From an uncultured Candidatus Saccharibacteria bacterium (GTDB taxonomy: Bacteria; Patescibacteriota; Minisyncoccia; UBA6257; 2-01-FULL-56-20): a DNA stretch of 64,000 nt. The notes under the pieces were generated by a model. It did no database searches. It was given only the letters and a program-made list of their open reading frames with translations, and had not been told where the DNA came from. Made by a program: the position numbers and the translations under genes. Positions 14,584-14,994 of the stretch are shown piece by piece; positions within the stretch are counted from its first letter, which is position 1; each line of letters begins with the position of its first letter. Location: the NCBI GenBank assembly GCA_964374065.1, contig CAYJWW010000002.1:4153-68152 (forward strand). Reading direction: 5' to 3'.

Positions 14584-14994
14584 TCAAATATTCTTCTCTT
14601 TCGTGAAAAAAATAGGCTGCCATTGGAGTGACTGTGCATAAACCGGGAAATACTTAACTGGTATCCGGGGCAACTCGATTGTTTTACTCTTGTTGGGAGT
14701 TAACCCGAGTCGCTTCAAGTCGGCAAAGATTGTCTTACTCCCGACTTGCAAACGATACGCTGATTTCCAACTCTTACTATTCCTTCTCTTAGTAGCTATC
14801 TTGTGATTAGAACCAAGCGCGATTCTAATCTTCTCCAATAAATCTCCGTCAGTAATCTGAAATTCGATACAGTGTGCTCCCCTTTTATTTCTAGTCATAT
14901 TTCCATCCGCAGTAAAGAAACCTAACACGTACGCCATTTCTGGTGACCACTTTTTGAAAAAGTTCTCGTTTTTGGTTCGGTAAATTGGCATCAC
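14584..14994 (-). CDS. free-standing LAGLIDADG homing endonuclease (single-motif, I-CreI-like)
   Basis: Motif [11 protein letters not shown] within a 136-aa ORF. Local GC is much lower (~40%) than the flanks. Its ATG overlaps the ligA stop codon (ATGA). Confidence 0.7.

Follow-up and report, generated by a model that had tools for sequence, protein, structure and literature searches.

The window, the whole 64,000-nucleotide stretch analysed here, derives from an uncultured Candidatus Saccharibacteria bacterium and carries an open reading frame (ORF) for a LAGLIDADG protein at positions 14584..14994 on the minus strand. The placement of this ORF directly after ligA and beside tRNA-Asp in the original prediction is confirmed. 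The product has 136 residues when read from a GTG codon and 135 when read from the ATG at 14991, the latter being the start used by the relatives and by the database entry P0001. The upstream gene ligA (14991..17159, minus strand) encodes a complete NAD-dependent DNA ligase with the Pfam adenylation, OB, zinc-finger, HhH and BRCT domains; intein domains are absent, which bears out the earlier statement that ligA ends in an intact BRCT domain and that the ORF is not part of an intein. Read directly from the letters of the junction (ATG ATT TCG TGA TGC CAA), the TGA stop of ligA (14991..14993) and the ATG of the endonuclease ORF have one base in common (TGATG). The overlap had been given as ATGA, which is to be replaced by TGATG, or by GTGA if the GTG start called by the ORF tool is used. 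A Shine-Dalgarno-like GAGGA (15002..15006, minus strand) lies within the last codons of ligA, 10 nt before the ATG and 7 nt before the GTG, and is a putative ribosome-binding signal for the endonuclease ORF; GGAG is found at the matching position in locus L153. The stop of ligA and the start of the endonuclease gene overlap as TAATG in L021 and L153-155 and are 0-1 nt apart in L079, L090 and L111, and this recurring arrangement makes expression of the endonuclease from the ligA transcript plausible. The GC content of the ORF region is 0.41 (0.39-0.44 across the ORF), close to the predicted 40%; the background of about 63% predicted along with it is too high, the value for the window being approximately 0.57. 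The Lys-, Asn- and Phe-rich composition of the protein could be a partial cause of the low GC content.

The tRNA-Asp(GTC) gene (14472..14546, minus strand) is located 38 nt downstream of the ORF stop and is intron-less according to ARAGORN, Rfam (63.2 bits) and a purpose-built detector, which returned an intron length of 0. Rfam detected no group I or group II intron in the window, and with the ligA stop directly on one side of the ORF and tRNA-Asp 38 nt away on the other, there is no room for a ribozyme at this place. A weak promoter-like sequence, TTGAAA-17-TAAGAT (14559..14587, minus strand), is positioned 12 nt upstream of tRNA-Asp; the consensus scan of the region yielded 3 such sites, against 0.8 ± 1.0 expected.

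Two other low-GC regions of the window contain genes that are, or may be, interrupted. A UDP-glucose/GDP-mannose dehydrogenase-family gene (41268..44069, plus strand) is interrupted by an intein with a LAGLIDADG_3 domain (41 bits in Pfam, and 47 bits for Intein_splicing), and the GC content dips at the same place (42-44 kb); the intein is the second LAGLIDADG element of the window and is unrelated to the sequence next to ligA. Within the island of lowest GC content in the window (0.41-0.44), a Transketolase_N gene (51362..52763, plus strand) shows up as two ORFs, 51362..51667 and 52200..52763. Between its halves lies a Cys-rich ORF of 191 residues (51677..52252) with an HNH-like NVDH...CH motif and no Pfam match, and here too an endonuclease may have inserted into a gene and divided it.

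Fold and domain architecture

The profile search proposed for the ORF gave a match to PF14528 (Pfam LAGLIDADG_3) of 31.1 bits, above the cut-off of 22.5. The ORF has one LAGLIDADG motif of 11 residues, including Asp30, which is invariant in the alignment of the relatives (A1). The AlphaFold2 (AF2) model consists of a helix (residues 18-30), two strands (31-35 and 41-47), a helix (50-60), two strands (67-69 and 79-85) and a helix (87-95), that is, the alpha-beta-beta-alpha-beta-beta-alpha fold of the domain, and residues ~11-100 correspond to one LAGLIDADG domain. The pLDDT is 70-85 in the core, 65.5 on average, and below 50 at residues 117-136. The top 50 Foldseek matches of the model in the PDB are all LAGLIDADG enzymes or maturases (E ~1e-3 over ~90-100 residues) and include I-DmoI, I-Tsp061I, I-SceI, I-AniI, I-OnuI and the bI3 maturase. 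A sequence search of the PDB gave a sole match, 2DCH (I-Tsp061I), which is weak (E 0.015), and a search of NCBIfam with the endonuclease gave no meaningful match. As originally proposed, the ORF thus belongs to a free-standing LAGLIDADG homing endonuclease lineage, with neither an intein (Pfam) nor an intron (Rfam) around it.

A search of 5.8 billion proteins yielded 530 relatives. Of the best 120 of these, on which the architecture was counted, 111 are 205-240 residues long and contain two LAGLIDADG motifs. One relative is identical to the window ORF; the next best have 60-77% identity, are nearly all ~222 residues in length, and align with the window ORF only up to residue ~120. Motif 2 of the relatives reads (F/L)VRGYFDGDGNV and their conserved tail ..FMY....LFLxRKKxIFEKY. 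The N-terminal domain, with motif 1 and Asp30 (residues 1-118; 14638..14991, minus strand), was delimited by tblastn against full-length relatives (E ~1e-55), by the family HMM (positions 1-117, 212 bits) and by alignment. Within this kept domain the window agrees with the family consensus at 46 of the 49 positions conserved at 90% or more. With 3 differences in 49 the domain is nearly intact, and either the deletion described below is recent or the domain is still constrained.

The alignment of the family with the window ORF diverges at residue ~118, and the remaining stretch (14584..14637, minus strand) encodes 17 residues of non-family sequence followed by TGA. A remnant of the C-terminal tail (26 residues; 14562..14657, minus strand) was located in another frame by tblastn, three-frame translation and the family HMM. 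With residues 193-222 of the relative P0091 as query, tblastn aligned 14657..14568 (E 2e-4); the family HMM matched at positions 193-221 with 12.2 bits, the maximum among 1320 shuffled frames being 6.0. The original TAA stop of the family tail is still present at 14562..14564. Because the tail is found in the other frame, the last 18 residues of the ORF are frameshift read-through past the deletion junction. Approximately 75 codons (HMM positions 118-192, motif 2 included) are missing between the N-terminal domain and the tail, and the DNA alignment with two full-length loci (A3) has a gap of ~225-235 nt in the window with collinear flanks. Of the two catalytic centres, the second (YFDGDGNV in the relatives) is deleted. 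The earlier description of a single motif therefore holds for the ORF as it stands, but not for the native architecture, from which the second motif has been deleted. An I-CreI-type native single-domain architecture, which the prediction had favoured, is ruled out by the two-motif close relatives and by the out-of-frame tail, which marks the deletion. Nor is the ORF what remains of an intron or intein after its excision from an adjacent gene, the alternative offered in the original prediction.

Decay is not confined to the window copy. L054 keeps HMM positions 1-78 and 168-220 and is frameshifted, L070 keeps positions 1-36 and 125-216, and other internal deletions or frameshifts are found in L010, L057, L065 and L096. 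With the second catalytic domain lost, nuclease activity of the window copy is improbable, and the product is, judging from its sequence, most probably inactive as a nuclease. The N-terminal domain may nevertheless be a remnant with residual function, for instance as a homodimer or a DNA-binding protein, a possibility raised by its good preservation and its presumed coupling to ligA.

The site 5' of tRNA-Asp

The family was sampled at 64 loci from GTDB species representatives. A tRNA-Asp gene lies directly downstream of the endonuclease gene in 58 of them, intron-less in 41 (ARAGORN calls) and intron-split in 17; the other 6 comprise one locus with tRNA-Leu, one at a contig end, and four remote homologues belonging to Bacillota genera and a nanoarchaeote. 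Loci retrieved via protein look-ups all have tRNA-Asp, except one at a contig end. Three full-length relatives with unrelated gene neighbourhoods have the order tRNA-Met(CAT)-ORF-tRNA-Asp(GTC) on one strand, and about half of the 64 GTDB loci have tRNA-Met at most 300 nt upstream of the endonuclease gene. The endonuclease ORF often stops at a TAG within tRNA-Asp, at tRNA positions 8-10 or 13-15. A full-length endonuclease gene directly downstream of ligA was found in L015, L021, L025, L029 and L059. The closest full-length relative, P0010 (77% identity; loci L153-155), follows ligA with the TAATG overlap and reaches 15 nt into tRNA-Asp. The idea that ligA is the partner of the element was not upheld, since the constant neighbour is tRNA-Asp, whereas the upstream side may be taken by tRNA-Met or by ligA.

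In the window, two tRNA-Met(CAT) genes form a divergent pair at 6216..6289 (minus strand) and 6385..6457 (plus strand); in L027, L049, L050 and L058 such a pair stands ahead of the endonuclease gene. In the window, tRNA-Asp and the endonuclease remnant are located 8 kb from the pair, behind ligA. A small gene with a GIY-YIG domain lies between two tRNA-Met genes upstream of the LAGLIDADG gene in L006 (4658..4924) and L007 (3035..3286), suggesting that several endonuclease types are collected by the tRNA cluster.

Presence and absence of the gene were compared at 80 ligA loci, collected from metagenomes with the LigA C-terminus as the anchor, a choice unbiased for the endonuclease gene. In 16 of these loci the site is empty, ligA being followed by tRNA-Asp after 8-183 nt without an endonuclease gene; in 5 it is occupied, with the gene between ligA and tRNA-Asp (one flagged as partial). 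In addition, L116 has the gene beside an intron-split tRNA-Asp and L111 is cut at a contig end. Five of the remaining loci have unrelated spacer inserts and the rest other synteny. L100, L101 and L132 exemplify the empty ligA site, and in L124 a 42-nt spacer without the gene separates tRNA-Met from tRNA-Asp. The synteny comparison called for in the original prediction thus revealed a polymorphism downstream of ligA, and 16 empty against 5 occupied loci is what one would expect if a mobile element used a fixed site. Spacers of 526-858 nt (L074, L104, L109, L125 and L145) were considered as decayed endonuclease genes and rejected, as they contain unrelated ORFs instead. Among the empty ligA/tRNA-Asp spacers, the HMM supports a tail remnant in L089 only (7.4 bits), the score of 5.9 bits in L082 being marginal in view of shuffles that reach 6.0, so most empty sites are not demonstrable as secondary losses.

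The GC content of the endonuclease gene is lower than that of the host flanks by 5-16 points in 14 of 15 loci and equal in L044. In a crude UPGMA of the endonuclease proteins, ligA and tRNA-Met contexts as well as candidate phyla are intermixed, and intron-containing loci are spread across at least 7 clusters. Horizontal transfer was not accepted on the basis of identities (77% for P0010 in the ligA context against 68-71% in tRNA-Met contexts), the difference being too small over 118 residues. A phage origin was also rejected, IMG/VR containing only distant relatives (28-43% identity) without tRNA neighbours.

An ORF-less insert of 196-269 nt interrupts the adjacent tRNA-Asp at position 35/36 in 18 occupied loci. 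The exon ends in ...CCTGT and resumes with CACG... in the anticodon loop. The split tRNA-Asp lies just 3' of the endonuclease gene in L017, L018, L020, L021, L027, L033, L036, L038, L040, L045, L049, L050, L054, L058, L061, L062, L070 and L116. Ten inserts match the group I intron model of Rfam (RF00028), with 82.2 bits in L033, 52.5 bits in L058 and E values of 6e-10 to 5.5e-4 in eight more. Both ARAGORN and the Rfam tRNA model overlook the split tRNA-Asp, and the respective genomes would therefore be annotated without a tRNA-Asp. Nakagawa et al. reported in 2026 an experimentally validated class of group I introns in Patescibacteria, inserted at position 35/36 of tRNA-Asp and tRNA-Asn (PMC13011429). 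In that study endonuclease genes were sought only within the introns, and transfer was described as infrequent and mobility as limited. The same study provides the figure for comparison, 3 of 95 genomes, and the enrichment of introns in occupied loci relative to it is confounded by sampling and phylogeny. In the ligA set the intron was found in 1 of 6 loci with the endonuclease gene and in 0 of 20 without, an association that is not significant. The presence of the intron in 18 occupied loci suggests that endonuclease and tRNA-Asp intron are mobilised jointly. The occupied locus L079 and the empty locus L073 have the same tRNA-Asp anticodon arm, which makes it unlikely that the target in those lineages lies strictly where the intron is inserted; one that spans the insertion point of the endonuclease gene itself fits better. 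Two further group I intron matches lie off tRNA-Asp, in L018 (5197..5407, plus strand) and L061 (2539..2757, minus strand), with 62 and 68 bits; the one in L061 adjoins the upstream tRNA-Met region.

Upstream of tRNA-Asp, the pattern TTGATT-N15-TATAnA was found in 13 of 81 loci compared with 0.7% of shuffles, the pattern having been picked post hoc. It occurs in both occupied and empty sites and is absent from the window. In the form TTGATT(T/A)AT...TATAnA it is positioned 12-33 nt upstream of tRNA-Asp in L105, L106, L108, L110, L125 and L144, and likewise in L006, L009, L015, L024, L088 and L156. It resembles -35/-10 hexamers with a 15-nt spacer, and in endonuclease genes it codes for the tail (LIYLxRKYK). 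The element is either the footprint of a lost endonuclease or a promoter of tRNA-Asp. A double role of the endonuclease tail as promoter of tRNA-Asp, on account of which it would outlast the rest of the gene, was considered and carries no weight in the preferred explanation. In L081, ARAGORN called a tRNA with the anticodon TTA ('Stop') immediately after tRNA-Asp (250..324 nt past the ligA stop), which may represent a suppressor-like tRNA or else an erroneous call.

Probable origin of the window copy and proposed mobility of the family

In our judgement the window ORF is quite probably a decaying copy of a monomeric, two-domain, free-standing LAGLIDADG homing endonuclease gene, of which the family site in Patescibacteria is the spacer 5' of tRNA-Asp(GUC). 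Intact copies encode ~222 residues and are co-oriented with tRNA-Asp and with the upstream gene, which is tRNA-Met or, in one clade, ligA; in the ligA clade the endonuclease start is at the ligA stop or one or two bases off. The intact enzyme would cut endonuclease-less alleles near tRNA-Asp, and repair off the occupied allele would copy the endonuclease gene into the cut allele, the conserved flanking genes serving as homology for repair. An ORF-less group I intron, located 35 nt into tRNA-Asp, would be carried within the same co-conversion tract. In the ligA clade translation of the endonuclease would be coupled to that of ligA. Cleavage by RNase P at the 5' end of the tRNA would strip the stop codon from processed transcripts, and expression would perhaps be kept low in this way. 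In the window, an internal deletion of ~225-235 bp took the second domain with its catalytic motif, shifted the frame and left a ligA-coupled ORF of 135 residues; the copy would represent the stage of degeneration in a cycle of invasion, fixation, decay and loss.

The one intact motif with its catalytic Asp, the 46 of 49 conserved N-domain positions that agree with the family, the start overlapping the ligA stop with GAGGA upstream, and the LAGLIDADG fold of the AF2 core would also be compatible with a functional single-domain homodimer like I-CreI, translated off the ligA mRNA as an active selfish element. Such an enzyme is nevertheless improbable, as the close relatives are all two-domain proteins and an out-of-frame C-terminal tail is what a deletion leaves behind. 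Read-through with a pLDDT below 50 makes up the last 18 residues, the truncated relatives are broken at other places, so that the form in the window is unshared, and the motif-1 helix evolved for packing on a non-identical second domain. An artefact of metagenome assembly or binning, with a full-length gene in the real genome, has the lowest probability of the readings considered here. The contig is metagenome-assembled, and misassembly readily occurs where GC is low and several strains are present; against this, L072, a Logan contig from run ERR3478686, encodes the identical 135-residue protein with the same neighbouring genes, although the deletion is seen in one metagenome assembly and L072 may stem from the same reads. 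The flanks are furthermore collinear with the relatives, and independent internal deletions occur in other genomes.

The fixed place beside tRNA-Asp across many candidate phyla, the introns in the adjacent tRNA-Asp at 18 loci and the presence of the bI3 maturase among the fold matches would suit a domesticated host factor, that is, a maturase or a DNA/RNA-binding protein for tRNA-Asp or its intron, the window copy having been lost since its tRNA-Asp is intron-less. LAGLIDADG maturases are an established class. However, ~70% of the occupied loci have an intron-less tRNA-Asp, most ligA/tRNA-Asp loci are without the gene, and pseudogenes are found beside intron-containing (L054 and L070) and intron-less tRNA-Asp alike. 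Intact copies keep both catalytic Asp motifs, and their GC content is below that of the host in nearly all loci checked. A host factor is therefore about as improbable as the homodimer, and a decaying homing endonuclease gene remains the preferred explanation.

Relation to known systems and significance

The intact relatives resemble I-DmoI and I-Tsp061I (2DCH), enzymes of archaeal rRNA introns, in their length of ~220 residues, their two motifs and their monomeric two-domain form. They differ in that the tRNA-Asp family is free-standing in bacterial chromosomes in the spacer of a tRNA gene; the window keeps the first domain only. Collaborative or trans homing, in which a free-standing endonuclease acts with an adjacent ORF-less intron, was described for cyanophage F-CphI/psbA and T4 mobE/I-TevIII (PMC6083498, PMC2790892, PMC3984707). 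The family shares with these pairs the free-standing gene beside a host gene with an ORF-less group I intron, an arrangement present in 18 related loci and missing in the window, where tRNA-Asp is intron-less. Unlike F-CphI and mobE, the enzyme is of the LAGLIDADG and not of the EndoVII-like or HNH type, is encoded on a cellular chromosome and not in a phage, and has a tRNA as host gene; moreover, most occupied loci are intron-less like the window, and the identical anticodon arms argue against cleavage at the intron site. The inserts agree with the introns of PMC13011429 in their position (35/36 of tRNA-Asp) and are 196-269 nt long, next to an endonuclease gene; the intron-less tRNA-Asp of the window and the flanking LAGLIDADG gene, unmentioned in that study, set the present case apart. 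LAGLIDADG genes have also been reported inside 16S and 23S rRNA insertions of CPR bacteria (PMC11270868). These belong to the same host phylum and enzyme superfamily but lie in rRNA insertions, and the words tRNA, free-standing and intergenic are absent from the main text of that paper. In a full-text literature search of incomplete coverage, no paper was found that places a LAGLIDADG gene 5' of tRNA-Asp, and the tRNA-Asp-site endonuclease arrangement in Patescibacteria appears to be undescribed.

The window copy alone is a dying selfish gene and as such ordinary. The arrangement as a whole is widespread in Patescibacteria: the gene sits in the interval preceding the single tRNA-Asp gene, has its stop in the tRNA, and stands beside an ORF-less intron in ~30% of the occupied loci. 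It supplies a candidate for the enzyme behind the movement of tRNA introns believed to be endonuclease-free. It is possible, if rather doubtful at present, that this is a bacterial chromosomal case of collaborative homing, in which the endonuclease moves both itself and the intron at tRNA-Asp 35/36 among Patescibacteria, with the tRNA and ligA flanks as homology arms. If true, the spread of 'endonuclease-less' tRNA introns would be explained and the published inference of their near-immobility revised. The family also offers compact monomeric LAGLIDADG scaffolds of ~220 residues whose target region is predictable, and carries a warning for annotation, because standard tools overlook tRNA-Asp in many such genomes. 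Its intact, internally deleted and lost copies form a natural series for the life cycle of homing endonucleases in cellular chromosomes.
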